Positions 19,601 through 64,000 are shown, counted from the stretch's first letter. The stretch: 64,000 bases of DNA from Terriglobia bacterium (GCA_020072965.1 JAIQFY010000011.1:14925-78924), one strand, 5' to 3'. Notes: generated from the letters alone by a model not told the origin. A program made the numbers and translations.

Positions 19601-19889
19601 AAACGACGGTTCCATCATCCTCGATGACCGCAATATTTCCTTGATCCGCATTCAGGGTATTCTGTTTCAATGAAAACTTAGGACCCTGTTGGCGATATTT
19701 GAAGTTCTGTGAGTTGCGGGCGGTGTCATTCCAATTCCCCGGATAGGTCCCGTCGACGAATCCGCCTTCCCGCAATCGCTCGGGTGAAACCTGTGGCCGA
19801 TTGGATCGGGCCAAAAGCGAAGTGGGCAGACCCAGAATCGCAAAATAAATTAAGAAGGAAAACACCATTCTTTTGAGTGAAAGCTTCAT
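16632..19889 (-). CDS. Large secreted protein (1085 aa) with an N-terminal beta-sandwich-like domain and C-terminal approx. 95-aa internal repeats
   Basis: Signal peptide MKLSLKRMVFSFLIYFAILGLPTSLLA. Repeated modules ending ..TQILLMNTSGSTIAGTISLF / ..TQIILINTSNSGETVGITFF / ALVNPGNTALTVNLTL / ALVNRNASSASVTLHL. GQEFGHRW is a possible metal site. Confidence 0.7.
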   Translation of the reverse strand: MKLSLKRMVFSFLIYFAILGLPTSLLARSNRPQVSPERLREGGFVDGTYPGNWNDTARNSQNFKYRQQGPKFSLKQNTLNADQGNIAVIEDDGTVVFPANLFDLDSSNIRFTPNGSGYLVNKIAQNFDPAAGSVLVPGTAAPAPGQPPGPNLSDDDATQVSFSGGFTFTFFGQTYTSVFVGSDGHLTFGSGDSTSDERDVVRFMGRQPRIGPLFADLEPGCGTGDIRTLQRSDRFIAIWNDIPNFSDFCSNVNRNHNTFEVVLFANGSIEFSYNGMGTSEGVVGIAPGNNLGSPPSVVDYTTLTTSTPEFGVVFEFFSTSTQISRTALAQKFFQSHGDDYDFITFLTNFNFNLGSGAFAFEENVSNDATGLGVLPVFQPDPAWGTKGRLRSFLTLGPLSQYPNDPNQIFLGTNSTVEVIGQEFGHRWMSFVDIPGAICDPTTSPQTFVNTILGRDCAHWSFFFNSDGSVMEGNDIQDNGNGTFTTKDDATSKYSDLDQYLMGLKDQSEISPTFAVFNPTGAGGRANGSPPAIRITFGGTKHTVTVNDIITASVPLPGGGTRPNGVRTPTPATSQKAFRQAWILLVQRNTTPSAADLAKIDTIRQAWQSFFSTATNGRGSVDTTLVSSVFSAQLPASGGVSKISSGQGQFASVTYGQVTNPAGPPPVGLAIFAQRQSGALITEAGVPAVAPATSSRVFVDFDAANGRDSGVALVNPGNTALTVNLTLRDQNGVSSSCPAVTVPPLGKVAQFASQFGCSALGSSFLGTLTFTASAPFAAVNLRSAPNDHPPESIFSALPVVDPTVTPVGSNLIFSQILDGNGNPTQILLMNTSGSTIAGTISLFRDAGTPILLDFGSGPVSSLFYSISANGMQKFSTTGQGGLKVAYAVVTPTSGQLPAGAVIFAGKGATGQSSQAGVLNAIPTTNARVYIERSSVPLDRNTGIALVNRNASSASVTLHLVSLDGSFDRTTSINVDPNIHLAAFIEQLFSSVSIPSEFKGVLTIQSNQPLALITLRLTHNERGEEIYSTLPVADLNNPPIGPLFIPQVVDGGGFTTQIILINTSNSGETVGITFFGPNGNIVIVPFS

Positions 19890-45497: not shown

Positions 45498-45670
45498 GGC
45501 ATTCCTCAGCGCCTGGAACAAGAGTTTTAAATTTCATCTAATCTGCTGATTCTAAATACTATGCTAATACAGCCTTTTCTTTGAACTCCAGACTTCATTG
45601 GCGTACGAATTGCTAATCCTATATGTGAATTTTTGCACTAAGATTCACCATTGCCAGCAGTTCGGCGCAA

Positions 45671-45871: not shown

Positions 45872-46873
45872 ATGACCTCATTCACGGGCCCGCTGAAGGC
45901 GATCAAGATGACGCTCATCAGCGGCTTAGTGCTTGTGGGACTTGTGGGCGCCTTTTCCCTTTCCTTCTCGAAGTCGGCCAAGCCCGACAAGGGAAAGACT
46001 CCGCAAGCCACGTCGGCGAATTACAAGGCGGAGGACTATGTTGGGGCTGACACCTGCAAGACCTGCCACGAAGAGATTTACAACAATTTCCAAAAGACGG
46101 GCCACTTCAAACTGACGCGATATGGCAACTGGACGGCCGACAACAAAGGCTGCGAAGCCTGTCACGGACCGGGCAAGGCCCACGTGGATGGAGGCGGTGA
46201 TAAGACCAAGATTCATACGTTCGAGGATCAATCAGCCAAACAGATATCTGAAACGTGTCTCCGTTGCCATGCCGGAAAAGAGGAACACAACAATTTCCGA
46301 CGGGGTGAACACTGGCGGAACGATGTGAGCTGTATCAACTGTCATGCGCCCCATTCGCCAACGGCCACAGATCTTAAAATGTTGGTCCAGAAGGAACCGA
46401 TGCTCTGCATCTCCTGCCACAGCGAGATCAAAGCGCAGTTCAATATGCCTTTCCGTCACAAGGTGATGGAAAACACCACGAAGGGCAACGTGCTGGAAGG
46501 CACCATGAAGTGTACTGATTGCCATAATCCTCATGGCGGGTTTGAACAGAAGCAGGTGAGGCTGGCAACGGGAGGAGATGCCCCCTGCATGAAGTGTCAC
46601 GCCGACAAACAGGGACCCTTTGTATTCGAGCATGCGCCGTTGAGGGAGGAGGGTTGCACGATTTGCCATATCCCGCACGGGTCGAATAATCCAAAACTGC
46701 TGAAGCGCAATGAAGTCCGGATACTCTGCCTGGAATGCCACAGCAATGCGGGCACCGTGGGAGCGCCTGATACTCCGTCGTTCCATAACCAGGCAACAGC
46801 GCGATTCCAGAACTGCACGACCTGCCATGTCAAGATTCACGGCTCGAATCTCGATCGATTCTACTTCCGTTGA
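45872..46873 (+). CDS. Decaheme c-type cytochrome, MtrA/PioA/MtoA-like periplasmic conduit cytochrome
   Basis: 10 CXXCH motifs (CKTCH, CEACH, CLRCH, CINCH, CISCH, CTDCH, CMKCH, CTICH, CLECH, CTTCH). 333 aa. Signal/TM at N-terminus. RBS AAGGAG 7 nt upstream. Confidence 0.8.
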   Translation: MTSFTGPLKAIKMTLISGLVLVGLVGAFSLSFSKSAKPDKGKTPQATSANYKAEDYVGADTCKTCHEEIYNNFQKTGHFKLTRYGNWTADNKGCEACHGPGKAHVDGGGDKTKIHTFEDQSAKQISETCLRCHAGKEEHNNFRRGEHWRNDVSCINCHAPHSPTATDLKMLVQKEPMLCISCHSEIKAQFNMPFRHKVMENTTKGNVLEGTMKCTDCHNPHGGFEQKQVRLATGGDAPCMKCHADKQGPFVFEHAPLREEGCTICHIPHGSNNPKLLKRNEVRILCLECHSNAGTVGAPDTPSFHNQATARFQNCTTCHVKIHGSNLDRFYFR

Positions 46874-46922
46874 CGTGTGAGGGGCCTACACCGCTAACGA
46901 TATTTTTGGAGAAACGCACATC

Positions 46923-48932
46923 ATGAAAAATAAAATCGGATTCACGCTTTTGATCGTGCTGGGGATCGCGATGGGGGCATTGGTGGTCCGTGCACAGTCC
47001 ACTCCCCCCTCCAGCGATACGGTCCTGGGGGGTTATACCGTGACCCAGGATGCCGAGTTGGGGGTGCGGTTTTTGGGCCGAGACGGGAATGAGAATAAAT
47101 ACCGCAGCGATCTGAATTACGGCCGGGGCTTCCGGCTCTTCAACTATGATTTCCTGGCGCGATCGAAGGACGGCCACGGAGGCTTTTTTGATCTATTCCG
47201 TGTGACGGCGCTCGGCTGGGGTGGGGATCCCAACGAGTTTCTGCGCGTGGATGTCGAGAAGAACAAGTGGTACCGTTTTGATGCCACTTTCCGCCAGTTT
47301 GATTATTTCAACAACCTCACCAATCTGGCGCTGAACCAGCACCTCGCCGATAACAGTCGCAAATTCGACGATTTCAATTTGGCGCTCTTCCCTGACAATC
47401 AGCACTTCAAGTTTTACGTCGGTTACACGTTTGACAAGAGCAGTGGGAATGCGACCACGACGTACGATTACCAGCGCGATGAGTTCCCCATCCAGTCTAA
47501 AGTCCGGTCCGTGGCCAATGACTGGCGGGTCGGCTTTGATGCCAAGGTGTGGGTGTTTGACCTTTCCTTTCTCCAGGGATACCGCATTTTTAAGGACGAT
47601 ACTACTTACGTGGTTCCCTCTCTTAATGTGGGAAATAACCCGACGAATACCAGCGTCATTAATTTCTTAACGCGGGATGTGCCGTCGCGCACCCACATGC
47701 CCTTTACCCGTTTCAGTGCCCACACGCTGATCAAGAAGAAGCTGGACTTTACCGGTCGGTTCATTTACTCAACTGGGACCACCACCTATAATTTCGCAGA
47801 GGCCGTGAAGGGGGTCGATGCCTCCAACAACAACATTCTCCTGGATCTTTTCAATGGACCCGGGAGCGCCCGGCGGCCTAACGGCATTGGTGATTTGGGG
47901 GCGAGTTTCTTTGCCACCGACCGTTTGACCATCTCGGAGACCTTCCGAGTAAACACTTTCCGCATTTCGGGCGGGTCGAACGTCTTCGAATCGTTGTTCC
48001 GCACTCGCACGACGGCATTTGGAACAACTACGCTTCCTCCGACTTTCATTTCCTCCCTGATCTTCGAACTGGTCGGATATCGTTTGTTCTCCAATTACAT
48101 TGAGGGGGACTACAAGTTCAGTCCAAAATTCTCCGGACATGTCGGTTATCGATATACGTCGCGGCGGGTGGAGTTGGGTACCTCGATTCAACCGCCTTTG
48201 GGAACGGCGCTCGATACCGACACCCAGTTCAACCACACCAACTCGGTGGTGGTGGGGTTCAAAGCACGCCCCGCTTCCATCTGGACCGTCTATTTTGACT
48301 TTGAGCGTGGCACGGCGGACAACGTGTTCACGCGGCTCTCCAATTACAACTACACCAACTTCCGCGTGCGCACCAGTGTCAAGCCGACAAAGACCCTGAC
48401 ATTTAACGCTTCCCTGGTGACCCGCGACAACAACAACCCCGCCCTCACCCAGGGGGGTCAGAACTTCGGTGTTGATGCCAAGGGGCGGATCTTTAGCGCG
48501 TCAGCGGATTTCAGCCCCAACTCGAAATTTACTTTCACAAGCGGCTATACCTATAACCGCCTTACCTCCGATTCCTCTATCATCTTTTTCCTCGGGGGCA
48601 TCCAGACCACAGGAACCAGCTTGTATTTCCTGAGGGACCATTACTTCTTTTTCAATTCCCACGTCCAGCTCCATCCTCGAGTGGGCCTTTTCTTCGGCTA
48701 TCGCATCGAGAAGGACACCGGCCAGGGAGACCAGGTTGCGAGTTCGCCGAGCCAGTTGATTTCGTCCTATCCGTTGCAGTTCCACTCACCCGAGGTTCGG
48801 TTGACTTTCAAACTGCTTGAGCATCTGGATTGGAATGCCGGGTTCCAGCGGTATGATTACAAGGAGAAATTCCTGAACAACCAAAACTACCGAGCGAATT
48901 TGCCTTACACTTCGCTTCGGCTCTACTTCTGA
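46923..48932 (+). CDS. Outer-membrane beta-barrel protein, MtrB/PioB-like porin partner
   Basis: Signal peptide. 669 aa, rich in alternating aromatic/Gly/Thr/Asn. C-terminal ...SLRLYF. Translationally adjacent to the decaheme gene. Confidence 0.65.
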   Translation: MKNKIGFTLLIVLGIAMGALVVRAQSTPPSSDTVLGGYTVTQDAELGVRFLGRDGNENKYRSDLNYGRGFRLFNYDFLARSKDGHGGFFDLFRVTALGWGGDPNEFLRVDVEKNKWYRFDATFRQFDYFNNLTNLALNQHLADNSRKFDDFNLALFPDNQHFKFYVGYTFDKSSGNATTTYDYQRDEFPIQSKVRSVANDWRVGFDAKVWVFDLSFLQGYRIFKDDTTYVVPSLNVGNNPTNTSVINFLTRDVPSRTHMPFTRFSAHTLIKKKLDFTGRFIYSTGTTTYNFAEAVKGVDASNNNILLDLFNGPGSARRPNGIGDLGASFFATDRLTISETFRVNTFRISGGSNVFESLFRTRTTAFGTTTLPPTFISSLIFELVGYRLFSNYIEGDYKFSPKFSGHVGYRYTSRRVELGTSIQPPLGTALDTDTQFNHTNSVVVGFKARPASIWTVYFDFERGTADNVFTRLSNYNYTNFRVRTSVKPTKTLTFNASLVTRDNNNPALTQGGQNFGVDAKGRIFSASADFSPNSKFTFTSGYTYNRLTSDSSIIFFLGGIQTTGTSLYFLRDHYFFFNSHVQLHPRVGLFFGYRIEKDTGQGDQVASSPSQLISSYPLQFHSPEVRLTFKLLEHLDWNAGFQRYDYKEKFLNNQNYRANLPYTSLRLYF

Positions 48933-49234
48933 GCGATGCCAATTACGCTCGAGGTAAAACCATTGGACCAAGAAGGATTATTCTTATCGATAAACTCTAG
49001 ATGTCGCGCCTGCAACGATCCGTGATACGGACGCGGACACATCGACTTCGGAAGCTGATCGTCCGATATTTTAAACAGCCACTCCTGCAGGGGGCTGCAC
49101 CTTAAGTCAAGGAGGTAGAAAACCATGGCCATGGCAGATTATGACAATGACCCCTAACCTATAGGTTGCCGATTTTTTTCGTCTACATTTGTGAAAGCAT
49201 TCACATGACGTTAACGTCAGAAAGGATCATTTTT

Positions 49235-50194
49235 ATGGTAAAGAAGCTCATATTAGCATTTACGTTCTTACTTGTTCTTGCAAGCCTATCTTTGGCCGCC
49301 AATCCCACTCCGGCACCGCTCAATGTCCCGACCTACAACTATTCGGAGTCGAATGGCTGTCCGAGTTGTCACTTCTCGTCGGGAACGGCAGGCGATCACA
49401 TGATGGAAGCGGTCGGCATGAGTATCGACAAGGGCAACACTGCTTTCACGCTCTCTGGCAGTGGCTGGCGTGCATCCCGGCATGCTCAATCCAACCATGG
49501 GTCCACGCAAAATACCTTCTGTGCAAAATGCCACTCTCCTCTTCAAGCCACACCTCAAGCGACCTTTAACAATGGGTTCCTGGAGAACACGGCGTTGATC
49601 GCTGATGGCCAAATGGAAGGTGTCACCTGTGCGGGGTGCCATCCGCCCCACGCCACCGTTCCTCGCCTTGGGATTTACCATTTCGGTCAGGACAAGACCA
49701 AGGCATCATCGTACACATTGATTCAGGAAGATGAGCAGGACCTGCTTTGCCTCAACTGCCACGTCAACCGACACAACGAGACCAACACTGCCTTTAAGCG
49801 GATGTACGACGCCGGCGTGCAGTGCACGGATTGCCACATGGCTCGCTATGGATTGACCAACAATGGTCAGGGTACAGTCCAAAAGCGCTTCCATGATTTC
49901 AAGGTGGCAGAGAATCTACCGTATTCCTGCGGTGTCGACGGGGCGGTTTCTGGATTCCGGTGCCATCCCGGCTTCAGCACAGAAGCAACTCTCGCCTTCC
50001 TGCCCTTCCTGAAGGAGCAGCACAGCGATTGGTGGCCTCTGACTCAGAGTGCCGGCAAGAGAGGCAATGCGACGGCTACTAGGACCCTGGCAACACCGGC
50101 CGATTATATGGACCTCTGGAAAGAGATCCAGAACGGGACTACCCGGGTGCAGAGCGAAGCGAAACGAGTGGATCGAACTCAAGCTGCCCAGTAA
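49235..50194 (+). CDS. Secreted pentaheme c-type cytochrome
   Basis: Sec signal MVKKLILAFTFLLVLASLSLA. 5 CXXCH motifs (CPSCH, CAKCH, CAGCH, CLNCH, CTDCH). RBS AAAGGA. Confidence 0.8.
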   Translation: MVKKLILAFTFLLVLASLSLAANPTPAPLNVPTYNYSESNGCPSCHFSSGTAGDHMMEAVGMSIDKGNTAFTLSGSGWRASRHAQSNHGSTQNTFCAKCHSPLQATPQATFNNGFLENTALIADGQMEGVTCAGCHPPHATVPRLGIYHFGQDKTKASSYTLIQEDEQDLLCLNCHVNRHNETNTAFKRMYDAGVQCTDCHMARYGLTNNGQGTVQKRFHDFKVAENLPYSCGVDGAVSGFRCHPGFSTEATLAFLPFLKEQHSDWWPLTQSAGKRGNATATRTLATPADYMDLWKEIQNGTTRVQSEAKRVDRTQAAQ

Positions 50195-50372: not shown

Positions 50373-51161
50373 ATGGACTCATCAAATAGAAGACGTTTTG
50401 TTAAGAACGTGGGTGGAATCGCGATCGGTGCAGTCGCTGGGTCCGGGGTTACCCGGCTCCTTTCTTCGGACGAAGCGCCACTTGCGATTCCGGCTTTGCC
50501 TTGGCCTTATGTGGATTTGGATCCGATTGCAGTAGCCGAGAGAGCGTACCTGGGTTATTCCAACGGTGGGTGCATGTACGGGGCATTCGAGGGAATTATC
50601 GGGGAGTTACGTACCAAGCTGGGAGCACCATTCGATACCTTTCCTACCACCATGATGAAATACGGTGGCGGGGGGGTCGCCGGTTGGGGCAGTCTCTGTG
50701 GAGCGTTGAATGGCGTCGCGGCAGCCATTTATCTTTTGAAGGATTCAAAAACCGGAAATGATCTGATCAGTGAAATCTTTAACTGGTACGGAGTAGAAAA
50801 GCTCCCAAATTACCGACCAAAAACCCCGAAGTTTGAAATTGCAACCACTATTTCGGAGTCCCAGTTGTGTCATGTGTCTGTCACCAAGTGGGCTAATCAC
50901 ACGGGTTTCAAAACGGGCTCTCCCGAGCGCGCTGAAAGATGTGCGTGGCTCACTGCTTCTGTCGCCAAGTACACCACAGAATTGCTGAACAAGCAGCTCG
51001 CCGGGACTTACCAGCGGGCGCACCAAACCCCCGCGAAGGTTACTCTGTGTTTGCAGTGCCATGGACCCAGCGGCACGGTAGCCAATGTCCATATTACCGG
51101 GGGTCAAAGTAACTGCACCTCGTGTCATCATCGACACTGGGCTGGAGGAGTCGAGTTCTGA
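50373..51161 (+). CDS. C_GCAxxG_C_C family redox protein with C-terminal diheme c domain (split-Soret cytochrome-like), Tat signal
   Basis: SNRRRFVKNVG twin-arginine leader. Cys pattern C...CGALNG...C...C. CLQCH and CTSCH at the C-terminus. RBS AGGAGG. Confidence 0.65.
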   Translation: MDSSNRRRFVKNVGGIAIGAVAGSGVTRLLSSDEAPLAIPALPWPYVDLDPIAVAERAYLGYSNGGCMYGAFEGIIGELRTKLGAPFDTFPTTMMKYGGGGVAGWGSLCGALNGVAAAIYLLKDSKTGNDLISEIFNWYGVEKLPNYRPKTPKFEIATTISESQLCHVSVTKWANHTGFKTGSPERAERCAWLTASVAKYTTELLNKQLAGTYQRAHQTPAKVTLCLQCHGPSGTVANVHITGGQSNCTSCHHRHWAGGVEF

Positions 51162-51348: not shown

Positions 51349-51409
51349 CTTCGAATGGTTCTGAATATCGCGCCATGTCAATTGAGGGGTCGCCAACGTA
51401 GTGCCTCTG

Positions 51410-51786
51410 TTGAATCCGTCGATTGCCACATGGCTCCGTATGGACTGACCAACAACGGCCAGGGAACGGTGCGGAAGCGCTTCCATGATTTCAAGGTGGC
51501 CCAGAATCTTCCCTATTCGTGCGGGGTGGATGGGTCTGTGAATGGATTTGTTTGCCACGCGGGATTCAACACAGAATCGGCTCTCGCCTTCCTTCCCTAC
51601 ATGAAGGAGCAGCACAGCGACTGGTGACCGGTAAACTCAAGCACCGGCAAGAGGGCCGCGAGCACAGCCGTGGGTGCGCTGCAGACTCCAGAAGATTACA
51701 TGGCACTCTGGAAGCGAATCCAAGATCGAGGCGGACAACTCCCGCTTAAGCACAAGCAAGTTGACCGGAAAGCGATTCATCTCTAG
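51410..51786 (+). pseudogene. Degenerate 3' fragment of a paralog of the pentaheme cytochrome gene (in-frame TGG TGA stop, first heme Cys lost)
   Basis: SVDCHMAPYGLTNNGQGTVRKRFHDFKVAQNLPYSCGVDGSVNGFVCHAGF...KEQHSDW* aligns with 49835-50194 of the intact gene at about 80% nt identity. TGGTGG has become TGGTGA. Homology continues after the stop and through the terminator. Confidence 0.7.
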
Positions 51787-52228: not shown

Positions 52229-53887
52229 TTGTCCCAGGGCATGATTGAATTCTCTATGAAATCAAACGGAAAGACACGGATGTCCAACGAAAGTTCGTGG
52301 ATTGAAGGAACAACAACTCAAGCTCCCCAGAAACTCAGTCCTACTGCCGAAAGAGGCGAGGAAAAAGCCGGGCCCGCAAATGGAGGATTTCTTGATGCTT
52401 CCATCCGTTTTCTGAGCACCGTTCGCCTGGGACTCTACCTGTTGATTATCCTCGTTGTCATCTCGTTTATTGGAACGATCATCCCCCAAAAACCGAACAC
52501 CTCTCCTGAAAACCTGCAAAGAATGTTTGCCCCCGCCAACCTCGTGCTGCTGGACCGGATTGGCATCCTCGATATTTTTCACGCCTGGTGGTTCAAGGCG
52601 TTACTGACGCTGCTCGGCCTGAACATCGTCTTCGCATCACTGGACCGCTTCTCACACGCATGGAGATACATCAGGCGCCCGGCGCGATGGCTCACCGAAA
52701 CGGTAATTCGAGCCCAGCACCAGCATGCCGAAATCCACTTCCAGACTTCCCTCGAGGAAACCGAGCGAGCGGTCAAAGGGCGGTTGAGGAAGTGCCTGGG
52801 GCATCCTGAGGAGACCGAAAGGGAGGGACGGAAGGTCATCTTTGCGCAACGGCATGTTTATTCGCGCCTGGCCGCCTATGCAATTCATCTCAGCCTCCTG
52901 GTCATCTTCGCCGGGGGATTGATCGGATTGGAATTGGGCTACAAGGCGCGGGTATCTTTGAGGGAAGGAGAATCCACTTCAAAGGTCATCCTTTTCGATA
53001 CCACGCGGAGTGTCGTGGAGGCCGCAGGGGAACCGAGGTTCCTTGAGAAGGAAATTCCCTTCACGCTTCAACTGGACAAGGCCGAAGTCGTTTTTAACAA
53101 CCCCAAAGACTCCAGCCTTCTCCACCGCGATGACATCCAGAGTCCCGGTGTGGTGAAGAACTGGTACTGCACGATGTCTGTTTGGGAAAATGGGGTCAAG
53201 CAAAGCACCCAGGTGGTGGCGGTGAACCAACCGCTTTCGCACCGGGGATTCCGGTTCTTTCAAAGTGGTTTTGATTTCGGGAACGGACTGAAGGAATTTA
53301 CATTTCAGGTTCGTTTGAAGGGGGCGGGCGGACAATCCTCTGAAGCCGTTTACAAGGTTCGAAAGGGGGACTCCTTCGAGATCAAAGACGCCCACCTGGT
53401 CGCCACGCCGGTGCGGTCGGGAATCATGCCGCAAGCCGATCTGCCCTTTGTATTTCTCAGCCTCCAAAGCAGCGATGGGAAGCCCCCTCTCCAGCTGCCG
53501 GTCTTCGACGAGCCCACGACCCAAAAAATGCGCCAGGGGGCGAACGATGCATCGCCGCTTCCTAAACCTCCTGATGGGATGGAGATTTTTCTGATCGACG
53601 CCACCCCGGAGTTCTCGACGACCCTTCAGGTCTCGCGTGATCCCGGAGTTAACACGGTGTGGGCGGGATGCATTCTCCTGATGTTGGGATTGATGGTGGC
53701 CTTTTACTTTTCGCATCAACGGGTGTGGGCCCTGTTGATTCCCGTTGAGGACGGCACGACGGTCGTCCTTGGCGGTGATTCCAGCAAGAACCGATCTGCT
53801 TTCGCAAGAAAATTTCAGCATCTTGTCGACTTGATGGGGCCACAGGAAGAAGCCTCCCCCGTGAGGCAGGATTTCAAGGAGAAGTAA
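52229..53887 (+). CDS. resB: Cytochrome c biogenesis protein ResB/CcsB (system II)
   Basis: N-terminal TM after FLDASIRFLSTVRLGLYLLIIL. Large periplasmic domain. C-terminal TM. Immediately followed by ccsA. Confidence 0.85.
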   Translation: MSQGMIEFSMKSNGKTRMSNESSWIEGTTTQAPQKLSPTAERGEEKAGPANGGFLDASIRFLSTVRLGLYLLIILVVISFIGTIIPQKPNTSPENLQRMFAPANLVLLDRIGILDIFHAWWFKALLTLLGLNIVFASLDRFSHAWRYIRRPARWLTETVIRAQHQHAEIHFQTSLEETERAVKGRLRKCLGHPEETEREGRKVIFAQRHVYSRLAAYAIHLSLLVIFAGGLIGLELGYKARVSLREGESTSKVILFDTTRSVVEAAGEPRFLEKEIPFTLQLDKAEVVFNNPKDSSLLHRDDIQSPGVVKNWYCTMSVWENGVKQSTQVVAVNQPLSHRGFRFFQSGFDFGNGLKEFTFQVRLKGAGGQSSEAVYKVRKGDSFEIKDAHLVATPVRSGIMPQADLPFVFLSLQSSDGKPPLQLPVFDEPTTQKMRQGANDASPLPKPPDGMEIFLIDATPEFSTTLQVSRDPGVNTVWAGCILLMLGLMVAFYFSHQRVWALLIPVEDGTTVVLGGDSSKNRSAFARKFQHLVDLMGPQEEASPVRQDFKEK

Positions 53888-53890
53888 ATC

Positions 53891-55375
53891 ATGAGTCGTG
53901 TTCATACCGGACCATTGACCGAAGGTGACGGGGCAGCACAGAAGAAGATACTTTGGCCGATGCTCTCCAGTGTTCTTGGGATGGTGCTGCTGGCGTTATT
54001 TGTGATCCCGAACATTCTCAAGAGCGGGGCCGGATTGATGAGTCCGGGAGCCCTGCTCAGTCTGGCCATCATTTTTTACGTCGGCTCCTCGGCCTTGCTG
54101 ATCAGCTATCTGCTGCGGCGCGTGGAGCGTCTCCTCCAGGTGGCCAAAGGGTTGATACTGGTGGGCTTCATCTTTCACACCGGTGCCATCGTCGCCCACT
54201 GGATGGTCGCAGGACGTCCGCCCATTTCAAACATCTTTGAAATGCTGATCAGTTTTGCCTGGGCCCTCATTGCCCTGGATTATGTTTTCCAGCGAATCTA
54301 TAAGCTCAAGATCCTCAGTTCGTTCAGTGTCCCCATCGCCACCCTGGCAGTATTGCTTTCGACTATCCTGCCTGCGGACCCGGAGCGAACACTGCCCCCG
54401 GCACTCCAAAGTGTGTGGCTATACATCCATGTCACCTTTGCGATTTTCAGTTATGTCGCCTGTGCCATTGCGTTTGTGGCTTCAATCCTCTACCTCGTCA
54501 AAGACCGCGTGAAGCTCGAGACTTTCGGAATGATCACACAGGCCCTCACGGTCACGACCATCGCGGGGATTGACTGGCTGGGAAATGCGGACACGGCCCA
54601 CCGGCACTTCAACATCCTGCTGCGGGGTGAGTTCTTCCTCAGCCTCCTCTACAAAGGACGTGAGATTGCCATTCCAGGGATGGAAAAGACTTACCTGGTC
54701 GCGGGACTGCCCTTTGCCGGCAACGCCTTGCGGGTCTCCCTTCTGGTAGCCGTCATCGGACTGGTCCTGTACCTGGCAAAAGCCTCTTCGAAAACTCTGC
54801 TCCGGGTGACCCAGTTGGGATTTCTCGCACAGCTGGCATCAGTGGCCGTCATTCTGGCCGCGACACTCAGTAACTCGACGCAGCAGATGATCGACAGGAT
54901 TCCCGGACAAGTTCTGGGCCAGTTTGACGCGGCGGCCCTGGCGAAGGCGGCCACGGTCAGCATCAAATCCATTCCATTCATCTTTGCGGGACTCCTCGTG
55001 GCGCTGGTCACCACACTGTTATTTCTTATCTTGCACTCCCGGCATGAGGCCATTGTATCTTCGCTCCCCGATGGCAAGCTGCTGGACGAGGTCAATTACA
55101 AGGTCGTCACCATCGCGTTTCCATTACTCACCTTGATGATTGCCACGGGAGCCTTCTGGGCCAATCGCACCTGGGGTTCTTACTGGAACTGGGACCCCAA
55201 GGAAGTGGGGGCTCTGATTACCTGGCTGGTTTATGCAGCCTACCTGCATATGCGCATCGTTCGCGGCTGGGCCGGCCGGCGAGCCGCCTATTTCGCTATC
55301 ATCGGTTTTGTGTTTGTCCTCTTTACGTTCATTGGGATTAGTTATCTGCTCCCGGGCCTCCATGCGTACGCTTGA
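53891..55375 (+). CDS. ccsA: Cytochrome c-type biogenesis protein CcsA/ResC (system II heme lyase), long form (494 aa)
   Basis: Multi-[28 protein letters not shown] is the Trp-rich WWD heme-handling motif. Confidence 0.85.
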
Positions 55376-55594: not shown

Positions 55595-55830
55595 CCACTG
55601 CCATCTGAAATACAACAAGACATTGAATGACGTGGGCACGTGTTATGCAAAGAATCACAATCTCTCCGACTGCAAGGCGCCGGAGGCAAAGTAGGCGAAG
55701 GGCATTGGACTGTCGGGCTGCATTGGAAGGCAAGGGCTTGAACGCGATTCGCGCTGGATGGAGCCCGGCGCAACGTGTTCGGGCGGAAATGTTTTTGGGG
55801 AAGGAAATGATCTCCCTGGAGTGAGACAGG

Positions 55831-56815: not shown

Positions 56816-58840
56816 ATGAAAATTCGTCCCTTACAATTACCGGGTCTGCGATCTGTCCGGTTCATCTTTCCTTTGTTTCTCTTTCTCTTAATGATCTCCT
56901 GTTCCGCGGCCTGGGGAGCAGTCAAGAGCTCTGAATGTCTGAGCTGCCACGCCATGGAGGGGTTCCAGTCTCCCGGTGGAATGAATCTGTATGTCGACCA
57001 AAAGCGATTTGAGAAGAGCGTCCACTCCTTCTTGAATTGCACGGATTGCCACTCTGACGTTTCAAAGACACCGCATGCTTCCCAATTGGCCAAAGTGAAC
57101 TGCGGTACCTGCCACGAGGAACAACAGAAAAAATTCGCGTTGTCGATTCATGCGGGAAAAGTGATTCACAATCCTTCCGACGGGGGAAACGGAAAGAAGG
57201 CGTTCACGTGCGCGGACTGCCATAGCCCTCATACGATTCTGCCGAAGAGCGATCCGGCCGCTGCCACCCATCACACCAACGTGCCCGCCCTTTGCGGCAC
57301 CTGCCATCAGAACCTGCAGTTTGTTATTGAATCGCCCATGGCAGAAACCTCCAAGCCTTTTTTCGCCTACCGGGAAAGCGTCCATGGAAAATCAGTGGCG
57401 GCGGGATCGGAGCGGGCCGCGGTCTGTTCCGACTGCCATAACGCTCACGACATCTTGCCGCCCAACAACCCGAAATCCACGATCTTCAAAACCAACACTC
57501 CCGAAACATGCAGAAGGTGCCACGAAAACATTTACGCCGAGTACAGCGATTCCGTGCATGGAAAAGCGGTGAAGCGGGGGCTTTTCAACGCCCCGGTCTG
57601 CGTGGACTGCCACGGAATCCATTCCATTAAGTCACACATTGATCCGAGGTCGAACGTGGCGGCCCAGGTCATTTCGCGATCCACATGTGGGCAGTGCCAT
57701 TCAGGAGAGAAACTCTCTGCCGAGTACGGCGTCCCCGAGAATCGAGTCTCCTCTTATTTTGCAAGCTATCACGGCCTGGAGAGCCGGGTGGGATCGGTTG
57801 AAACGGCCAATTGCGCCAGTTGTCACGGGGTGCATCACATCCTTCCGTCGGGCGACCCACGGTCCACGGTGAACAAAGCCAACCTCGCACAAACCTGCGG
57901 GCAGTGCCATCCCGGGGCCAGCGAAAATTTTGCCAAGGGTCGCATCCATCTGCTGAAAGGACAAGGGGATGCTATCGGCGGACGGATCATAACGGCTGTC
58001 ACCCAGTTTTACGTTTGGCTGATATTCCTGGTGGTGGGGGGAATGATTATTCACAACGCGATTGATTACTTCGCCCGGGCCCGCCTGCGATTGCGTGAGG
58101 ATTTGCTGCATGGGAAGGCCACCATCGAGCGAATTCACTTGAGCGGCCGTATCCAACACGGAATTATGTTGTCGAGCTTCATCCTGCTGGTCATAACCGG
58201 ATTTGCGCTGAAGTTTCCCGACGCTCAGTGGGTGCATGCCCTGTTCCTCGGAAATGCCGCTGTCCGCGGCGTGGTCCACCGCATCGCCGCTGTAATTTTC
58301 ATCGGCCTCGCCTTCTTCCATCTCTATTTCATCCTCTTCACGAAAAAGGGCCGGCAGGAATTGAAGGCCTGGCTTCCCCGGCTTCAGGATGTCCGGGACA
58401 TGCCCCTGATGATCAGCTATAACCTGGGACTTACAAATGAACACCCCCGATTCGATCGCTTCGGCTATGTGGAGAAGATGGAGTATTGGGCGCTGGTGTG
58501 GGGCACCCTCATCATGGTGGCCACCGGACTGGCGCTGTGGGCGAAAACCTTCGTCCTGTTTTACATCCCAAAATGGGGTCTGGATGTCTTTGAAGTGATT
58601 CACTACTACGAGGCCTGGCTTGCCACGCTTGCCATCATCGTTTGGCATCTCTATATGGTCCTGATGCGACCGGGTTCGTACTCGTCGAGCTGGATGTGGC
58701 TGACCGGAAAGATTACCCGCGAAGAAATGATTGAGGAGCATCCCCTGGAATGGGAACGGATGGAACGCGAATCAAGGTCAGCCGAGAATGCCGAAAAAGA
58801 GGAGGCACAAGAGATCCCTCAACCTGCCCGTTCGACATAA
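56816..58840 (+). CDS. CbcL-like fusion of an 11-heme c-type cytochrome and a dihaem cytochrome b (FdnI/HydC-like) membrane domain
   Basis: Signal/TM, then 11 CXXCH arranged in paired repeats. C-terminal 5-TM region with conserved His (HNAIDYF, HGIMLSS, HRIAAVIF, WHLYMVL). Confidence 0.75.
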   Translation: MKIRPLQLPGLRSVRFIFPLFLFLLMISCSAAWGAVKSSECLSCHAMEGFQSPGGMNLYVDQKRFEKSVHSFLNCTDCHSDVSKTPHASQLAKVNCGTCHEEQQKKFALSIHAGKVIHNPSDGGNGKKAFTCADCHSPHTILPKSDPAAATHHTNVPALCGTCHQNLQFVIESPMAETSKPFFAYRESVHGKSVAAGSERAAVCSDCHNAHDILPPNNPKSTIFKTNTPETCRRCHENIYAEYSDSVHGKAVKRGLFNAPVCVDCHGIHSIKSHIDPRSNVAAQVISRSTCGQCHSGEKLSAEYGVPENRVSSYFASYHGLESRVGSVETANCASCHGVHHILPSGDPRSTVNKANLAQTCGQCHPGASENFAKGRIHLLKGQGDAIGGRIITAVTQFYVWLIFLVVGGMIIHNAIDYFARARLRLREDLLHGKATIERIHLSGRIQHGIMLSSFILLVITGFALKFPDAQWVHALFLGNAAVRGVVHRIAAVIFIGLAFFHLYFILFTKKGRQELKAWLPRLQDVRDMPLMISYNLGLTNEHPRFDRFGYVEKMEYWALVWGTLIMVATGLALWAKTFVLFYIPKWGLDVFEVIHYYEAWLATLAIIVWHLYMVLMRPGSYSSSWMWLTGKITREEMIEEHPLEWERMERESRSAENAEKEEAQEIPQPARST

Positions 58841-58909
58841 CCCCGACGGATGGGGGCGGCGGGCCTCTGTGTTTTTTCGGCCCGGAGCTACGAGCCTTCA
58901 AGAAAAACT

Positions 58910-60700
58910 ATGCAATCCCGGAAGCGACAACGACAAAGCATGCTGGTGCTGGTGATCTTTCTGCTCGCAGTCTTTCTCGTCGTGTCTTATCGATTCTACA
59001 AGGAAACCGAAATCAAGGTGGTGGCACAGTCCGGCGTTCAACAATGGTTGATTGCAGAAACGGCCGCGGCGGGAGTGGAAGGGTACTTTGACACCATTTA
59101 CAAGCGCCTGGAAAAGGAATCCACGACCCTCGCCGCCCGCCCTGCGAACCAGCCCATTGCAGACCATTCACTCGACGCACTCTATCTCGATTTGTCGTAC
59201 CGGATTGCAGGGGTCTACCTGCTGAACGACAAATTTCAGATCGAGGTCTTTCGATCCAACGATCCCCAACTACGTAGTTATCTGCCGCAGATCACGGGAC
59301 CCTTGATGACCGCCCTTCTGCGCGGAGAACATGTGGTAGGCTCTCCGGTCGCCATCAGTAACTATGAATACATCTTCGAGATCCTCGAACCGGTGCTCGA
59401 TTCGGGGGGGCACTTGAAGATGGCCCTCGGCGCCGCGGTTCCCCTCCGGAATTTGAGCTCTCTCTATCTCGACCCGTTGAATTCCACCAAGACCCATTAC
59501 GCGTGGATGCTGGATCAGAAAGGGATGCTTCTCTACAATCCACGTCACGCCGAGATGCTGGGACACCAGATTCTCCAAAACCGCCAGGAGTGTTTTTCCT
59601 GCCACCTTAATTTCGAGACGGAAGAACGTATGGTGCGCGGGGATACGGGGACGGCGACCATCGAATTCAGGAACAAGGACCGGGACCTGGTCGCCTTTAC
59701 ACCCATCCGCATGGGTAATCAGCATTGGTCGCTCGCCGTTTCGATCCCCTATACCGAGGCCACCGCACTCACCCGTGACAGTTTTCGCAACACTCTCCTC
59801 CTGGTGGCCTTCTTCTTCTCGATCATTATTGGCGGGGCGGTGCTGGTCATGAACATGCACGCCCGCAGCATCAAGGCCGAAGAGGAGGCGCGGTTCACAA
59901 GACGGCAGGCGCAACTCGAGCGTCAATTGCTGCAGTCAGAACAACTGGCGGGCATCGGCCGTATGACCTCGCAGATTGCCCATCAAATCAAGACGCCGCT
60001 CTCGGCCATCTCGTTGAACATTGAGTATCTCGAAAAAGAAGTCCGAAAGCGCCTCCTTTCCAGTGGCGTCCCGATGGGTGATGCTTCGCTGGAAGACATC
60101 GAGAATGTCACGGCTTCAGTCACCAGCGAGATTCAGCGTCTGGCCGCTTTGATCGAAGACTATTTGAAATTTGCGCGCCTTCCTAAACCCGTCTTTCATC
60201 CGGGTTCACTGACCGAAATGTTGGAAAGCCAGGCGGCGTTTTTGGAAAAGGAAATGGGAGACCGTCACATTCAGTTGAAGGTAGACGCTGCGCCTGCGGG
60301 AAGCGGTGAGGCCGGCGGCCCCGATAAGATTCTGATGGATGAAAACCTGATCTGGCAGGCCGTTACCAATCTCATCCGCAACTCGGCCGAGGCAATGCCC
60401 TCAGGCGGTACGATCACACTGCGCGTAAGATGCGCCGACAATGACGTCGAATTCAAAGTCTCGGACGAAGGGACCGGAATCCCCGAAGACAAGCTCCCCC
60501 ACATCTTTGAACCCTTCTTCACGACCAAGCCTGACGGAACCGGATTGGGACTCTCTTATGTCCACCGGGTCGTCACCGAACATCACGCTTTCATCGCCTG
60601 CCAGAGCCGCATGGGCGTGGGAACATCATTCACGATTAACTTTCCCCGGTGGACAGACCAATCCCTGGAAGATGGAGCCTATGTTGATGCTAAATCGTGA
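58910..60700 (+). CDS. Sensor histidine kinase with periplasmic sensor domain containing a CXXCH heme-binding motif
   Basis: Two TM helices flank an approx. 280-aa periplasmic domain containing CFSCH. H-box IAHQIKTPLSAIS. HATPase_c N/G boxes (IRNSAEAM, DEGTGIP, GLGLSY). Confidence 0.8.
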   Translation: MQSRKRQRQSMLVLVIFLLAVFLVVSYRFYKETEIKVVAQSGVQQWLIAETAAAGVEGYFDTIYKRLEKESTTLAARPANQPIADHSLDALYLDLSYRIAGVYLLNDKFQIEVFRSNDPQLRSYLPQITGPLMTALLRGEHVVGSPVAISNYEYIFEILEPVLDSGGHLKMALGAAVPLRNLSSLYLDPLNSTKTHYAWMLDQKGMLLYNPRHAEMLGHQILQNRQECFSCHLNFETEERMVRGDTGTATIEFRNKDRDLVAFTPIRMGNQHWSLAVSIPYTEATALTRDSFRNTLLLVAFFFSIIIGGAVLVMNMHARSIKAEEEARFTRRQAQLERQLLQSEQLAGIGRMTSQIAHQIKTPLSAISLNIEYLEKEVRKRLLSSGVPMGDASLEDIENVTASVTSEIQRLAALIEDYLKFARLPKPVFHPGSLTEMLESQAAFLEKEMGDRHIQLKVDAAPAGSGEAGGPDKILMDENLIWQAVTNLIRNSAEAMPSGGTITLRVRCADNDVEFKVSDEGTGIPEDKLPHIFEPFFTTKPDGTGLGLSYVHRVVTEHHAFIACQSRMGVGTSFTINFPRWTDQSLEDGAYVDAKS

Positions 60701-61799
60701 TTCAGATCCCCTGATTCGACAGCAGCGCCGGGGTCGAACCCGGAAATTGGCCCAGGGACGATCTCTCACAAGGCGGGCCCTGCGCCTTGTTTCCACGAGT
60801 CTCGTTTTTGGGACAGGTCTCCTCGCGGCCTTGCTGGGTTTTTCGGCAGTCAACGCAGGTTCCACATTCGGGTCGCCGGATTGTACCCTCTGCCATGCGA
60901 ATTCAAAAACCCCTGTTACCCAGGACATGCTCAAAGACTCTGTCCATGCACGGCTCACGTGTATTGATTGTCATACTGGAATCCTGAATGCTCCCCATGC
61001 CGAGAAGCCCCCAGCCGTAGACTGTGGATCCTGCCATGCCGCCGAATCAATGGGATGGCACAAGAGTCCGCACGCGGTGAGGCCGGGCGCTCCTACCTGT
61101 GTCGGTTGCCATGGAACTCATTCCATGCATGCAATTCGCCCCGGGAACAACTCTGTCATCAAGCTGCAGATTGCCCAGCTCTGCGAAAAATGTCACGACA
61201 AGCAATTTGCCAGCTACAAGACCAGCGTTCATGCCCGAGCCTTGGAAAGAGGAGATGGAGAGGCGGCCACCTGCACCGATTGCCATGGCGGGCATGCCAT
61301 CCAAGGTCCCGAATCCGCCGGTTCGCCGGTGGCTCCTGCTTCCGTTTCCAGCACCTGCGGCGCCTGTCACGCCGATAAGAAGACCATGTCGATGTCCGGG
61401 CTCCCTACAGACCGGGTGTCCACATTCCGTAGCAGTTTTCACGCTGCCGCGTTGAGAATGGGGAACATGAAAGCTGCCACCTGTGCCTCATGCCATGGCG
61501 CCCATGACATCCTAGCTTCCCCCGATCCCGCCTCGCGCACCAGTCCGGCCAATTTGCCGAAGACATGCAGTCGATGCCATGCCGGTGTGAAGCAGGGGTT
61601 TGCCGGTGTCAGGATCCATGTTGATGTCAGCCCGACTGGGGCGAGAGCCGCCTGGTTTGTCCGAATCTTTTACATTGCATTCATCAGCATCCTGGTGCTG
61701 GGTTTCATCATTCACATTCTCGCCGAGCGCTTGGGGGCACTGAGAAAGAGAAGGATTGCGCACCGCGATGCTTCTTCGGAAAAGGGGGGTGTCCAATGA
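60681..61799 (+). CDS. Nonaheme c-type cytochrome with C-terminal membrane anchor
   Basis: 9 CXXCH. C-terminal TM helix WFVRIFYIAFISILVLGFIIHIL. Overlaps the histidine kinase stop by 20 nt. Confidence 0.8.
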   Translation: MLMLNRDSDPLIRQQRRGRTRKLAQGRSLTRRALRLVSTSLVFGTGLLAALLGFSAVNAGSTFGSPDCTLCHANSKTPVTQDMLKDSVHARLTCIDCHTGILNAPHAEKPPAVDCGSCHAAESMGWHKSPHAVRPGAPTCVGCHGTHSMHAIRPGNNSVIKLQIAQLCEKCHDKQFASYKTSVHARALERGDGEAATCTDCHGGHAIQGPESAGSPVAPASVSSTCGACHADKKTMSMSGLPTDRVSTFRSSFHAAALRMGNMKAATCASCHGAHDILASPDPASRTSPANLPKTCSRCHAGVKQGFAGVRIHVDVSPTGARAAWFVRIFYIAFISILVLGFIIHILAERLGALRKRRIAHRDASSEKGGVQ

Positions 61800-62524
61800 A
61801 TACCGCAGGTGGCCCCGAACAAGTAGACCGCAGGCCCTCGCGACAACCCGGCGCCACAATCAGCCGCCTCACATTATGGCAAAGGTGGGAGCACGGCCTG
61901 ATGGCACTTTCTGTCACGCTGCTCATCCTATCGGGTGTTGCTCTGACATACCATGAGCAAGCTTGGGCCCGATTCTTGATCTGGCTTATGGGCGGGTTGC
62001 AGGGCCGTCACTGGGTTCATCGAACCGCCGCCATAGGCCTCCTGGTCGCTGGTCTGCTGCATTTACTCGGCTTGATGCTATCTGAGCGGCATAAACGTGA
62101 TTTTCGTGAGGTCAAGCCAAGACCAAACGATTTCCGTGCCGCTTGGTCGGGGTTGAAATTTGCCTTTTCCGGAAAGGGGGAACCGCCCCATTACGGTTGG
62201 TTTACTCCCATGCAAAAGCTTCAATACTGGGGGGTGCTGATTGGATGTTTGTTGATGGGAGTCTCAGGGGTGCTTCTGTGGAACCCCGTCTTCACGCTGA
62301 ATTCCTTCCCCAAGTGGGTTCTGGACACCATGCTGGTCCTCCACGCCACGGAGGCCCAGTTCATCTTTGTGCTATTCATCCTCTGGCATCTATATGACGT
62401 CCACGTCGCGGAAGGAAATTTTCCGATGAACCCCGCCTGGCTTACAGGAAGGATGTCGGAGGAGCACTTCGCCCGGCAGCACCGTGCCTCCTGGGAAAAC
62501 GGTCGCTCCAAGGAGGAGGCATGA
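61796..62524 (+). CDS. Cytochrome b subunit (FdnI/HydC/PhsC-like dihaem b)
   Basis: 4-5 TM helices with conserved His (WEHGLMA, HRTAAIGLL, WHLYDVH). Start overlaps the upstream stop (ATGA). Confidence 0.75.
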   Translation: MNTAGGPEQVDRRPSRQPGATISRLTLWQRWEHGLMALSVTLLILSGVALTYHEQAWARFLIWLMGGLQGRHWVHRTAAIGLLVAGLLHLLGLMLSERHKRDFREVKPRPNDFRAAWSGLKFAFSGKGEPPHYGWFTPMQKLQYWGVLIGCLLMGVSGVLLWNPVFTLNSFPKWVLDTMLVLHATEAQFIFVLFILWHLYDVHVAEGNFPMNPAWLTGRMSEEHFARQHRASWENGRSKEEA

Positions 62525-63630
62525 CGCGCTCGCTCTTCAAGCCGCTTGCCCTCGAAGCCGCATTTGTCCTTCTCGGGATGACCTGGCTTGTAACCCCCCT
62601 CCCGGTCCGCGCTCAAGAAGACATTCGATGCCTTACTTGTCATGGCAAGCCCGGTTTCGAAAAAACGCTTCCCTCTGGCAAGAAGCTCGAATTATTTGTA
62701 GATCCGATGCGTTTGCGTCTCTCCGTCCACAAGGATCGGAAGTGCGTCGACTGCCATGCCGATGTGACCGAAGTCCCGCATCCCGAGATCCCCCAGAAAG
62801 TGAACTGTGGACGATGCCACTTCCTGGGTAACTCAGTAGGAGCCCCTCAGCTGCAAAGATACATCGAGTATGGGACGAGCGTTCATGGGAAAGCGCTGGC
62901 CGAAGGAAATCCCAAGGCTCCTGTTTGTCAGGATTGTCATGGAGACCATTTCATTCTTCCCGGCTCCGATGCCCGTTCTCAGGTGAACCACAAGAGCATT
63001 CCTCAGACCTGCGGGGGTTGTCATCTGGAAATCTACGCCCAGTACCAGGAATCAGTGCACGGACAGGCCCTGATCAAGGGAGTCAAAGATGCGCCGGTGT
63101 GCACCAACTGTCATGGAGAGCACAATATCCTCAAACCCCAGGACAAGACCTCCACCGTGAATCCCGGAACAGTAGTGAACACATGCTCCAAATGCCATTC
63201 CAAGGTCGTCATCATGGAGAAGTACGGGGTCAAGGCGGAGCAGGTGGCCACCTACCGGGAATCCTTCCATGGGATTGCCAACGAATTCGGGATGCTCAAG
63301 GCGGCCAACTGTGCCTCCTGTCATACCGCTCATCAGATTTTCCCGGAGCAGGACCCCCGTTCGACGGTCAATTCAAGAAACATCCCGCTCACCTGCGGAA
63401 AATGTCACCCCGGGGCCAATGCCAACTTTGCCCAGGGGCGAATTCATCTCAACCCCAAGGACAAATCGGCGGGAATCGTTTACTGGGTAGCATTGGGCTT
63501 CAAGGTCTTGACTCTATCAACACTCGCTGGTCTCCTGATCCATATCGCCCTCGACCTCTATCGCCGGTTCAAGAACCGGAAGCAGCCGGGTGAGAAGAAG
63601 GAAGTTGAAGTCGCGGAGAAGTCGCAATGA
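62521..63630 (+). CDS. Nonaheme c-type cytochrome with C-terminal membrane anchor (paralog of 60681-61799)
   Basis: Signal peptide, 9 CXXCH and a C-terminal TM helix. Same paired-CXXCH module organisation. Confidence 0.8.
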   Translation: MTRSLFKPLALEAAFVLLGMTWLVTPLPVRAQEDIRCLTCHGKPGFEKTLPSGKKLELFVDPMRLRLSVHKDRKCVDCHADVTEVPHPEIPQKVNCGRCHFLGNSVGAPQLQRYIEYGTSVHGKALAEGNPKAPVCQDCHGDHFILPGSDARSQVNHKSIPQTCGGCHLEIYAQYQESVHGQALIKGVKDAPVCTNCHGEHNILKPQDKTSTVNPGTVVNTCSKCHSKVVIMEKYGVKAEQVATYRESFHGIANEFGMLKAANCASCHTAHQIFPEQDPRSTVNSRNIPLTCGKCHPGANANFAQGRIHLNPKDKSAGIVYWVALGFKVLTLSTLAGLLIHIALDLYRRFKNRKQPGEKKEVEVAEKSQ

Positions 63631-64000
63631 GTGAAGAGAAGAGAACCTCGATCGAAGAAAGCCTTTGGGCTCAGAAGGACACGGCGGAGACGGCTGCCCG
63701 CTTGTCTCGGAGCATTTCTGATTCCGTGAGGAGAGAATTGCCGAAGGGTCTCCCGGAACCGCAGTTCAAGCGCTTGAAGAAGGAGCTTCTGGCTTCGCTT
63801 GAGAAGGAAATGGCCCTCGAGAGCCGGCGGGTCATCCGCCTCTTTCTGGATGAAGAAGAGGCACAACAGAAACATCTGGAGAAAAGGCGGAAGCGGAAAG
63901 TCCTTTTCGAAGAGTCCGTGGAGCGCATCAGTGTGAATCAACGTGCCCAGCACATGATCCTTCTTACCTGTACCGTGCTGCTTATCATCACCGGACTGCC
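63627..64000 (+). CDS. Cytochrome b subunit, second copy (5' partial, runs off the window)
   Basis: ATG at 63627 overlaps the upstream stop. The first TM region VNQRAQHMILLTCTVLLIITGL parallels RWEHGLMALSVTLLILSG of the 61796 gene. Confidence 0.5.
   Translation, partial: MSEEKRTSIEESLWAQKDTAETAARLSRSISDSVRRELPKGLPEPQFKRLKKELLASLEKEMALESRRVIRLFLDEEEAQQKHLEKRRKRKVLFEESVERISVNQRAQHMILLTCTVLLIITGL

Follow-up and report, generated by a model that had tools for sequence, protein, structure and literature searches.

The window analysed here, a 64,000-nucleotide (nt) stretch of DNA from a Terriglobia bacterium (GCA_020072965.1 JAIQFY010000011.1:14925-78924), ends within a cluster of cytochrome genes. 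Two consecutive gene pairs of this cluster, designated cA/bA and cB/bB, each encode a nine-haem cytochrome c with a C-terminal membrane anchor and a cytochrome b resembling FdnI, the four-helix dihaem cytochrome b of Escherichia coli formate dehydrogenase N (Fdh-N). Past the window end, the pairs are followed by a gene for a large multihaem cytochrome (M), whose N-terminus is of the NrfH type, and a fused paralogue of the pairs (F) is located just upstream of the cluster. We consider it fairly probable that the two pairs and M constitute one fixed assembly or relay, leading from the quinone pool to periplasmic or outer-membrane cytochromes, rather than a set of alternates.

The first pair consists of cA (60681-61799, with an alternative start at 60687) and bA (61796-62524), and the second of cB (62521-63630) and bB, of which the N-terminal 124 amino acids (aa) are encoded before the window edge (63627-64000; the full protein has 349 aa). 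All four genes are on the + strand. The product of cA contains nine CXXCH motifs, an N-terminal hydrophobic signal or anchor and a C-terminal transmembrane helix (residues 329-347) with a His inside it, and that of cB nine CXXCH motifs, a signal peptide and a C-terminal transmembrane helix (residues 322-340). Nine such motifs within approximately 370 residues, repeated in the orthologues from other phyla, are far more than would be expected by chance. The product of bA, a predicted dihaem cytochrome b with four transmembrane helices, has no CXXCH motif and matches the Pfam family PF01292 (Ni_hydr_CYTB; E-value 7e-15), as does full-length bB (8e-11). Both pairs thus correspond to genuine open reading frames (ORFs) and were correctly delimited in a preliminary description of this DNA.

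Stop and start codons overlap by 4 nt (ATGA) at 61796, 62521 and 63627, and likewise at the bB-M junction. The overlaps from c to b (61796 and 63627) had been recognized before and, as far as the sequence allows, they support the co-transcription of the c and b genes; the one at 62521 predicts that bA and cB are translationally coupled too, beyond the coupling inside each pair. Two of the start codons deserve comment. For cA, the start initially proposed is 60681, and 60687 is possible instead, this being the start in the public gene call, with a GGAG sequence located 9 nt upstream; either start overlaps the stop codon of the preceding histidine kinase gene (at 60700) by 14-20 nt. For bA, the initially proposed start (61796) is preferable to that of the public call (61901), since the latter would delete His33, the first haem-ligand His.

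The fused unit F (56816-58840, + strand; PF01292, E-value 4e-15) begins with a signal peptide, followed by a c domain with 11 haems, an anchor helix and, last, a dihaem, FdnI-like b domain with four transmembrane helices. Its ORF is open from 56705, and the start is most likely at 56816, because the homologues of F, of which more than 5,600 were found, are mostly about 670 aa long. F, cA/bA and cB/bB all combine a PF01292 domain with a multihaem c domain or subunit, in agreement with their original description as three paralogous units. Nine CXXCH motifs are present in cA and in cB; F has 11 and not nine. After the signal peptide F has one anchor helix and four further transmembrane helices, and the split pairs have one helix in the c and four in the b subunit; each pair may therefore be regarded as a unit of the type of the Geobacter cytochrome CbcL, cut exactly after the anchor helix.

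With regard to solved structures, chain A of PDB entry 28pb (a 278-residue 'Cytochrome c') matches residues 39-170 of F, which include its first four haem motifs, with an E-value of 1.7e-11, and is by sequence the closest solved relative of any c domain considered here. No solved structure resembling the c subunits was found, the best PDB sequence match of cB having an E-value of only 1.6e-4. A hairpin followed by a T-run, resembling a terminator, is present directly after the F stop codon (58850-58870, + strand). In a scan for sigma70 promoters and intrinsic terminators the counts in the region were no higher than in shuffled sequence, and transcripts are not defined by it.

The b domains were inspected for the residues that would bind haem. 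In the Fdh-N structure, the haem ligands of FdnI are His18, His57, His155 and His169, and all four positions are occupied by His in the aligned F, bA and bB proteins of the window and of three distant genomes. The equivalent residues are His33, His75, His183 and His198 in bA, and His109, His151, His259 and His274 in bB. The FdnI-like character of the b ORFs, which the loss of these residues would have contradicted, is thereby upheld. Among solved structures, FdnI alone (PDB 1KQF, chain C) is significantly similar to the b domains in sequence (E-value 3e-7 for bA). It is also the top match of the AlphaFold 2 models: the F model has a mean predicted local distance difference test score (pLDDT) of 77.5, and its b domain matches 1kqf_C with a TM-score of 0.81 and a root mean square deviation of 3.5 Å; the bB model has a mean pLDDT of 81.5 and a TM-score of 0.77.

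Two further His residues of the membrane part are conserved. One lies 14 residues beyond the ligand of transmembrane helix II. The other belongs to the anchor helix of the c subunit, where it sits close to the cytoplasmic end; all 41 fused homologues have it, as do 46 of 54 cB-type anchors. The anchor-helix His could be a residue of the quinone site, an inter-subunit haem ligand, as has been proposed for CbcA, or neither. A possible third haem site formed by this residue and the second His of helix II was also considered, but the anchor position is Tyr or Phe in several lineages. Where the alignment places the quinone-binding loop of FdnI, a near-invariant motif distinguishes each b paralogue: RFS[YF][IV]EKFDYWAVYWG in bB, RF[ST]YxEK[AM]EYWAL[VI]WG in F and, mostly, ..TPxQK[LF]QYWG in bA.

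An exact-protein look-up led to contig k141_2593454 of the metagenome ERZ27248002 (locus L001), which is 100% identical to the window over 11,480 nt. It allowed us to make the extension suggested in the preliminary description and to recover the truncated last gene: full-length bB (349 aa) is located at L001 11107-12156, as judged from the 100% identity in the overlap. In bB, the cytochrome b domain is preceded by a charged N-terminal extension of approximately 100 aa. In the AlphaFold model it folds as a helical hairpin, one helix of which is 52 residues long (pLDDT about 80-90). The extension, predicted to be cytoplasmic, could serve in oligomerisation or in the docking of a cytoplasmic partner. 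Residues 1-105 (L001 11107-11420; window 63627-63941) are conserved in the stand-alone bB family.

Downstream of bB, and overlapping it by ATGA, is the gene for M, a 679-aa cytochrome with 16 CXXCH motifs. Its N-terminus consists of a transmembrane helix (residues 8-26) followed by CSNCHYM, and matches NrfH (2j7a_C) in a phmmer search with an E-value of 3.8e-5. The last gene of the cluster, 17 nt past M, encodes a sigma54-dependent response regulator with receiver, sigma54-interaction and HTH_8 domains. At the other end, a histidine kinase gene (58940-60700, + strand; HisKA, HATPase_c and dCache_1 domains in Pfam) precedes cA. The predicted operon is thus kinase-cA-bA-cB-bB-M-regulator. Neither the NrfH-type module nor the flanking two-component system was noticed in the preliminary description, because they are located at or beyond the window edge.

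The relationships among the three units were examined by aligning their c and b domains, as had been proposed. The alignments confirmed that they are paralogues, with 29-41% identity, and did not bear out the local redundancy initially read from three such units within 8 kb: these are old paralogues in a conserved order, which have positional orthologues in other phyla. For unit B and F, the counterparts found at the same position in Methylomirabilis and other genomes are 43-85% identical, i.e. closer than the adjacent paralogue. Members of the cB clade share 53-85% identity across phyla, versus about 38% to the other paralogues; the values are 51-84% for the bB clade and 43-48% for the clade of F b domains. 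For unit A, which has cA orthologues in loci L007, L008 and L009, among others, the same-position counterparts are weakly closer (41-43% for c, 34-36% for b). Grouping of the units in neighbour-joining trees and in identity matrices follows position rather than genome; unit A gives a weaker signal in the same direction. A recent tandem duplication was rejected, given the 29-41% identity of the paralogues and the clear positional orthologues of cB, bB and F in other phyla.

The gene order is the same around three distant homologues, one of them from a Candidatus Methylomirabilis: a fused gene (650-703 aa) is followed by c (406-434 aa), b (230-236 aa), c (350-385 aa), b (334-348 aa) and one or two large multihaem cytochromes. 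Full-length bB as a query yielded over 1,800 homologues; among the matches listed, almost all are stand-alone proteins of about 290-370 aa. A bB profile run against species-representative genomes gave at least 594 hits; of these we took 80 loci, chosen by bB similarity, which together with three context loci and the window gave a rough census of 84 loci. This was based on our own ORF caller, a hidden Markov model of the b domain, CXXCH counts and best-BLAST labels from four reference genomes. The arrangement cA-bA-cB-bB was present in 19 of the 84 loci, bA-cB-bB in 31 and cB-bB-M in 35, and a fused unit was found nearby in 23. The titles of the records name Acidobacteriota, Methylomirabilis, 'Deltaproteobacteria', Syntrophorhabdales, Latescibacterota, Calditrichota, Poribacteria, Zixibacteria, Ignavibacteriales, Bacteroidetes, Armatimonadota, Bipolaricaulia, WOR-3, Hydrothermus and Aquificota.

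The exact 4-nt overlap was the commonest junction at each position (cA to bA in 12/19, bA to cB in 20/31 and bB to M in 21/39 cases). Predicted haem counts across the loci are 11 for F, 9 or 11 for cA and 8-9 for cB. All 38 M proteins (38/38) have a transmembrane helix, then CxxCH[YIFE]M and a second CXXCH at the NrfH spacing; most contain 13-18 haem motifs (up to 37 in some loci) and are about 510-790 aa long, the census ORF lengths being over-estimates.

Several loci depart from this plan. A variant cA-cB-bB followed by a 13-haem M, which lacks bA, is found in Ignavibacteriales, Calditrichota and Zixibacteria (L021, L023, L029, L030, L038 and L039), with F placed after it in L023 and L030. 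The anchor-helix His of cB is replaced by Phe in exactly these six loci. In L006 (GCA_040961615.1, 2833-6014) a Rieske/cytochrome b operon, which includes a nine-haem cytochrome of its own, separates cA from bA, and in the Methylomirabilis locus L004 bc-type (Rieske/cytochrome b) genes are found immediately upstream of the cluster.

By analogy with Fdh-N, each c/b pair would form a heterodimer like that of FdnH and FdnI, with the anchor helix packed on the b bundle. Electrons would cross the membrane by way of the two b haems, between a quinone site near the cytoplasmic face and the nine-haem periplasmic chain. The pairs and M, often with F, would be made together and connect the (mena)quinone pool with periplasmic or outer-membrane cytochromes, in a role in extracellular or periplasmic electron transfer. 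We favour such differentiated, co-produced parts over interchangeable alternates because the paralogues are old and positionally orthologous, and because their order and overlaps are conserved. A number of observations weigh against this view. The association of c with b, of pair with pair, and of the pairs with M is proposed on the basis of gene coupling and the Fdh-N analogy. Strict 1:1 pairing of c and b subunits is not universal, since some lineages lack cA (L010, L041, L042 and L044, arranged F-bA-cB-bB-M with an orphan bA) and others lack bA (the six loci with an orphan cA), and the anchor-helix His gives way to Tyr or Phe in some lineages. The terminator-like hairpin may separate F from the transcript that runs from kinase to regulator, and a scan for -24/-12 elements detected no strong sigma54 promoter directly upstream of the kinase gene or of cA. 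Finally, all loci with the tandem cluster belong to metagenome-assembled genomes (MAGs) or metagenome contigs.

The preliminary description had suggested that the redundancy of the units may allow tuning to different acceptor potentials, as proposed for the Geobacter ImcH, CbcL and CbcBA systems; the units, three or in fact four, would then be independent alternative quinol oxidases whose adjacency reflects their duplication history. The strong divergence of the paralogues (29-41% identity), their differing haem counts (11 in F, 9 or 11 in cA, 8-9 in cB) and their individual motifs at the position aligned with the quinone loop of FdnI would suit such tuning. Co-expression is compatible with it as well, because ImcH and CbcL are both constitutive in Geobacter and gated by potential, not by transcription (bioRxiv 10.1101/2021.04.15.440034). 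However, the overlaps run from module to module (bA to cB and bB to M) in most loci, MAGs assigned to about a dozen phyla keep the gene order, and variants with an orphan bA or an orphan cA exist; these observations are hard to square with self-sufficient, independent units. The three Geobacter oxidases are encoded at separate loci. We therefore regard independent oxidases as rather unlikely, although individual units could still differ in role and in potential.

Electrons could also flow inward, from periplasmic or extracellular donors such as Fe(II), reduced humics or a syntrophic partner to quinone at the cytoplasmic face, in a redox loop like that of Fdh-N and that proposed for MtoC. In Fdh-N, electrons enter FdnI on the periplasmic side and reach a quinone site on the cytoplasmic one (bioRxiv 10.1101/2022.08.31.506072), and the folds match. 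MtoC and MtrH are known from Fe(II) oxidisers, and quinol oxidases and quinone reductases cannot be told apart by any feature of their sequences (PMC6295460); the Methylomirabilis cluster, in addition, adjoins Rieske/cytochrome b genes. Set against this, the direction is not fixed by sequence, the neighbouring conduit of the DmsE/MtrA type can work either way, and the NrfH-type module of M is classically a quinol dehydrogenase. An inward route is, in our judgement, quite unlikely.

An extension of the assembly model, which we put forward as a speculation with little chance of being correct, is that cA-bA-cB-bB-M, usually with F, builds one respiratory supercomplex. In it, about 35-45 c haems would link an NrfH-type quinol site on the periplasmic side with FdnI-type quinone sites facing the cytoplasm, giving a quinone loop or a Q-cycle-like split and a haem-only functional analogue of the bc1 complex. 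The three gamma subunits of the Fdh-N trimer stand side by side, and the paralogous FdnI-type units may, by analogy, be arranged in the same way.

According to the source annotations, the b subunits are 'formate dehydrogenase subunit gamma', and TIGR01583 is indeed their best NCBIfam match. If they belonged to a formate dehydrogenase, or were a hydrogenase cytochrome b, the c genes would be unrelated neighbours. Yet the TIGR01583 scores of bA and F are 42.4 and 57.5 bits (cut-off, 115.85), and each c gene shares a 4-nt overlap with its b gene. In the window and in the related loci with Pfam calls, the b genes have only cytochrome c genes on either side (plus the kinase and regulator in this lineage), and no molybdopterin (FdnG) or iron-sulphur (FdnH) subunit genes adjoin them in the window extension or in those loci. 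The gamma-subunit label was rejected on account of the sub-cut-off scores and the missing FdnG/FdnH-type neighbours, and we attach almost no probability to this explanation.

The assembly model, which we retain as the preferred one, agrees with the gene content of the window, because a decahaem cytochrome of the DmsE/MtrA family, a beta-barrel candidate, five-haem and split-Soret-like cytochromes, and ResB and CcsA are encoded upstream. The first three of these (45872-50194, + strand) make up a candidate outer-membrane conduit resembling MtrAB: (i) the decahaem cytochrome (45872-46873), which scores 252 bits with TIGR03508 against a cut-off of 192, (ii) a 669-aa secreted protein (46923-48932), a candidate beta-barrel that has no family match and ends in LRLYF, and (iii) a cytochrome identified by its five haem motifs (49166-50194). 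Further downstream on the same strand are genes for the split-Soret-like cytochrome c (50373-51161; NF047622, E-value 1e-56, below the cut-off) and for the system II cytochrome c maturation proteins ResB (52229-53887; PF05140, 3e-78) and CcsA (53891-55375; PF01578, 4e-49). Features of the 50373-51161 protein are a C_GCAxxG_C_C region, a pair of CXXCH motifs and, at its twin-arginine-like N-terminus, the sequence SNRRRFVKN. A pseudogene remnant (51391-51768, + strand) is located in the 1-kb gap that precedes ResB; it corresponds to the last approximately 126 residues of a paralogue of the five-haem cytochrome (64% aa identity with an in-frame stop; 80% nt identity over 234 nt). Elsewhere in the window, a 1085-aa ORF on the - strand (16632-19889) encodes a protein with a signal peptide, no Pfam or NCBIfam match and no CXXCH motif.

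In the Terriglobia MAG, expression of the cluster is probably set by the putatively haem-bearing kinase together with the sigma54 activator, an arrangement specific to this lineage: only L008 and L009 share the kinase. Its two transmembrane helices span residues 1-19 and 286-304. The periplasmic, dCache-like domain has a single CFSCH motif at residue 218, conserved in the L008 and L009 orthologues, and it is possible that the kinase acts as a haem-c redox sensor. Moderate sigma54-like -24/-12 matches are found at 55634, 45599 and 45671, of which 55634 and 45671 are the best candidates; those at 45599 and 45671 precede the genes of the candidate outer-membrane conduit.

Of the steps of extracellular electron transfer, the one catalysed by inner-membrane quinol:cytochrome oxidoreductases is the least understood, and these enzymes have been studied almost solely in Geobacter and Shewanella. 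The cluster described here is a conserved, tightly coupled module of five to six genes in many uncultured lineages, and combines two kinds of quinone-interacting anchor, the FdnI type and the NrfH type. Should the cluster encode one assembly, it would offer a widespread candidate link from the quinone pool to haem wires of the periplasm; it would also be useful as a genomic marker and for testing how energy is conserved or dissipated at the quinone step. If the units are independent, it would represent a natural experiment on how the CbcL design can be split and diversified.

Among known systems, the closest in design is CbcL (GSU0274), in which a nine-haem cytochrome c is fused to an FdnI/HydC-like dihaem cytochrome b and which is a menaquinol oxidase used with extracellular acceptors of low potential (PMC6295460; bioRxiv 10.1101/2022.08.31.506072). 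The CbcL/MtoC/MtrH family has 3-23 haems and occurs in many phyla, including Acidobacteria (PMC6295460). Like the pairs and F, its members join a periplasmic multihaem c to an FdnI/HydC-like dihaem b and have no iron-sulphur, flavin or molybdopterin subunit. F has exactly the CbcL architecture in a single polypeptide, whereas cA/bA and cB/bB, of two polypeptides each, represent a split variant. CbcL is a single gene, while here a fixed tandem of pairs is accompanied by an NrfH-type multihaem cytochrome and bB carries the helical extension of about 100 aa. The likeness to CbcL of G. sulfurreducens is drawn from the published descriptions; an approximate CbcL query, rebuilt from the supplementary alignment of PMC9129911 (damaged by optical character recognition), matched only two irrelevant short proteins.

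The CbcBA system (GSU0593-0594) also has a separate, C-terminally anchored multihaem c and a dihaem b, a His in the anchor helix, and an associated sigma54 response regulator. Its b subunit is described as unrelated in sequence to that of CbcL and as having three ligand His, and the sigma54 regulator is needed (bioRxiv 10.1101/2021.04.15.440034). CbcB is described as resembling thiosulphate reductase and hydrogenase subunits and is proposed to take its fourth ligand from the anchor helix of the c subunit; in contrast, bA and bB are FdnI-like and have all four ligand His, to which the anchor-helix His is additional, and FdnI models outscore PhsC (E-value 8e-11 versus 5e-5). CbcA has 7 haems, as opposed to 9 here, and CbcBA is a single pair. 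Judging from their FdnI-like b subunits with four His, the pairs are split units of the CbcL type and not homologues of CbcBA.

Fdh-N of E. coli (1KQF) shares with the pairs the four His ligands and the combination of a C-terminal helix of the periplasmic subunit (FdnH) with a four-helix dihaem b (FdnI); its periplasmic partner is an iron-sulphur protein with a molybdoenzyme, whereas here it would be a multihaem cytochrome c with no catalytic molybdoenzyme. M resembles the NrfH/NapC/NirT proteins (2J7A, chain C) in its N-terminal transmembrane helix, the CxxCHxM motif of the first haem and the spacing of the second CXXCH. NrfH, however, has four haems in about 160 aa, while M has 16 CXXCH motifs in 679 aa and no NrfA partner.

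No named system matching c-b-c-b followed by an NrfH-type multihaem cytochrome was found in the searchable literature, which covers few subscription journals, so that this is weak evidence. The closest precedent for the splitting is provided by Carboxydocella thermautotrophica (PMC6085454), whose CbcL homologues are likewise divided into a dihaem b and a multihaem c anchored by a transmembrane helix, with two clusters per genome. These are located at separate loci (CFE_2192-2193 and CFE_2225-2226), not in tandem as here, and are not described as mutually translationally coupled or as followed by an NrfH-type multihaem cytochrome. Split, two-gene Cbc-like pairs are thus already known (PMC6085454), and the part for which no earlier description was found is their tandem cluster with an NrfH-type multihaem cytochrome.

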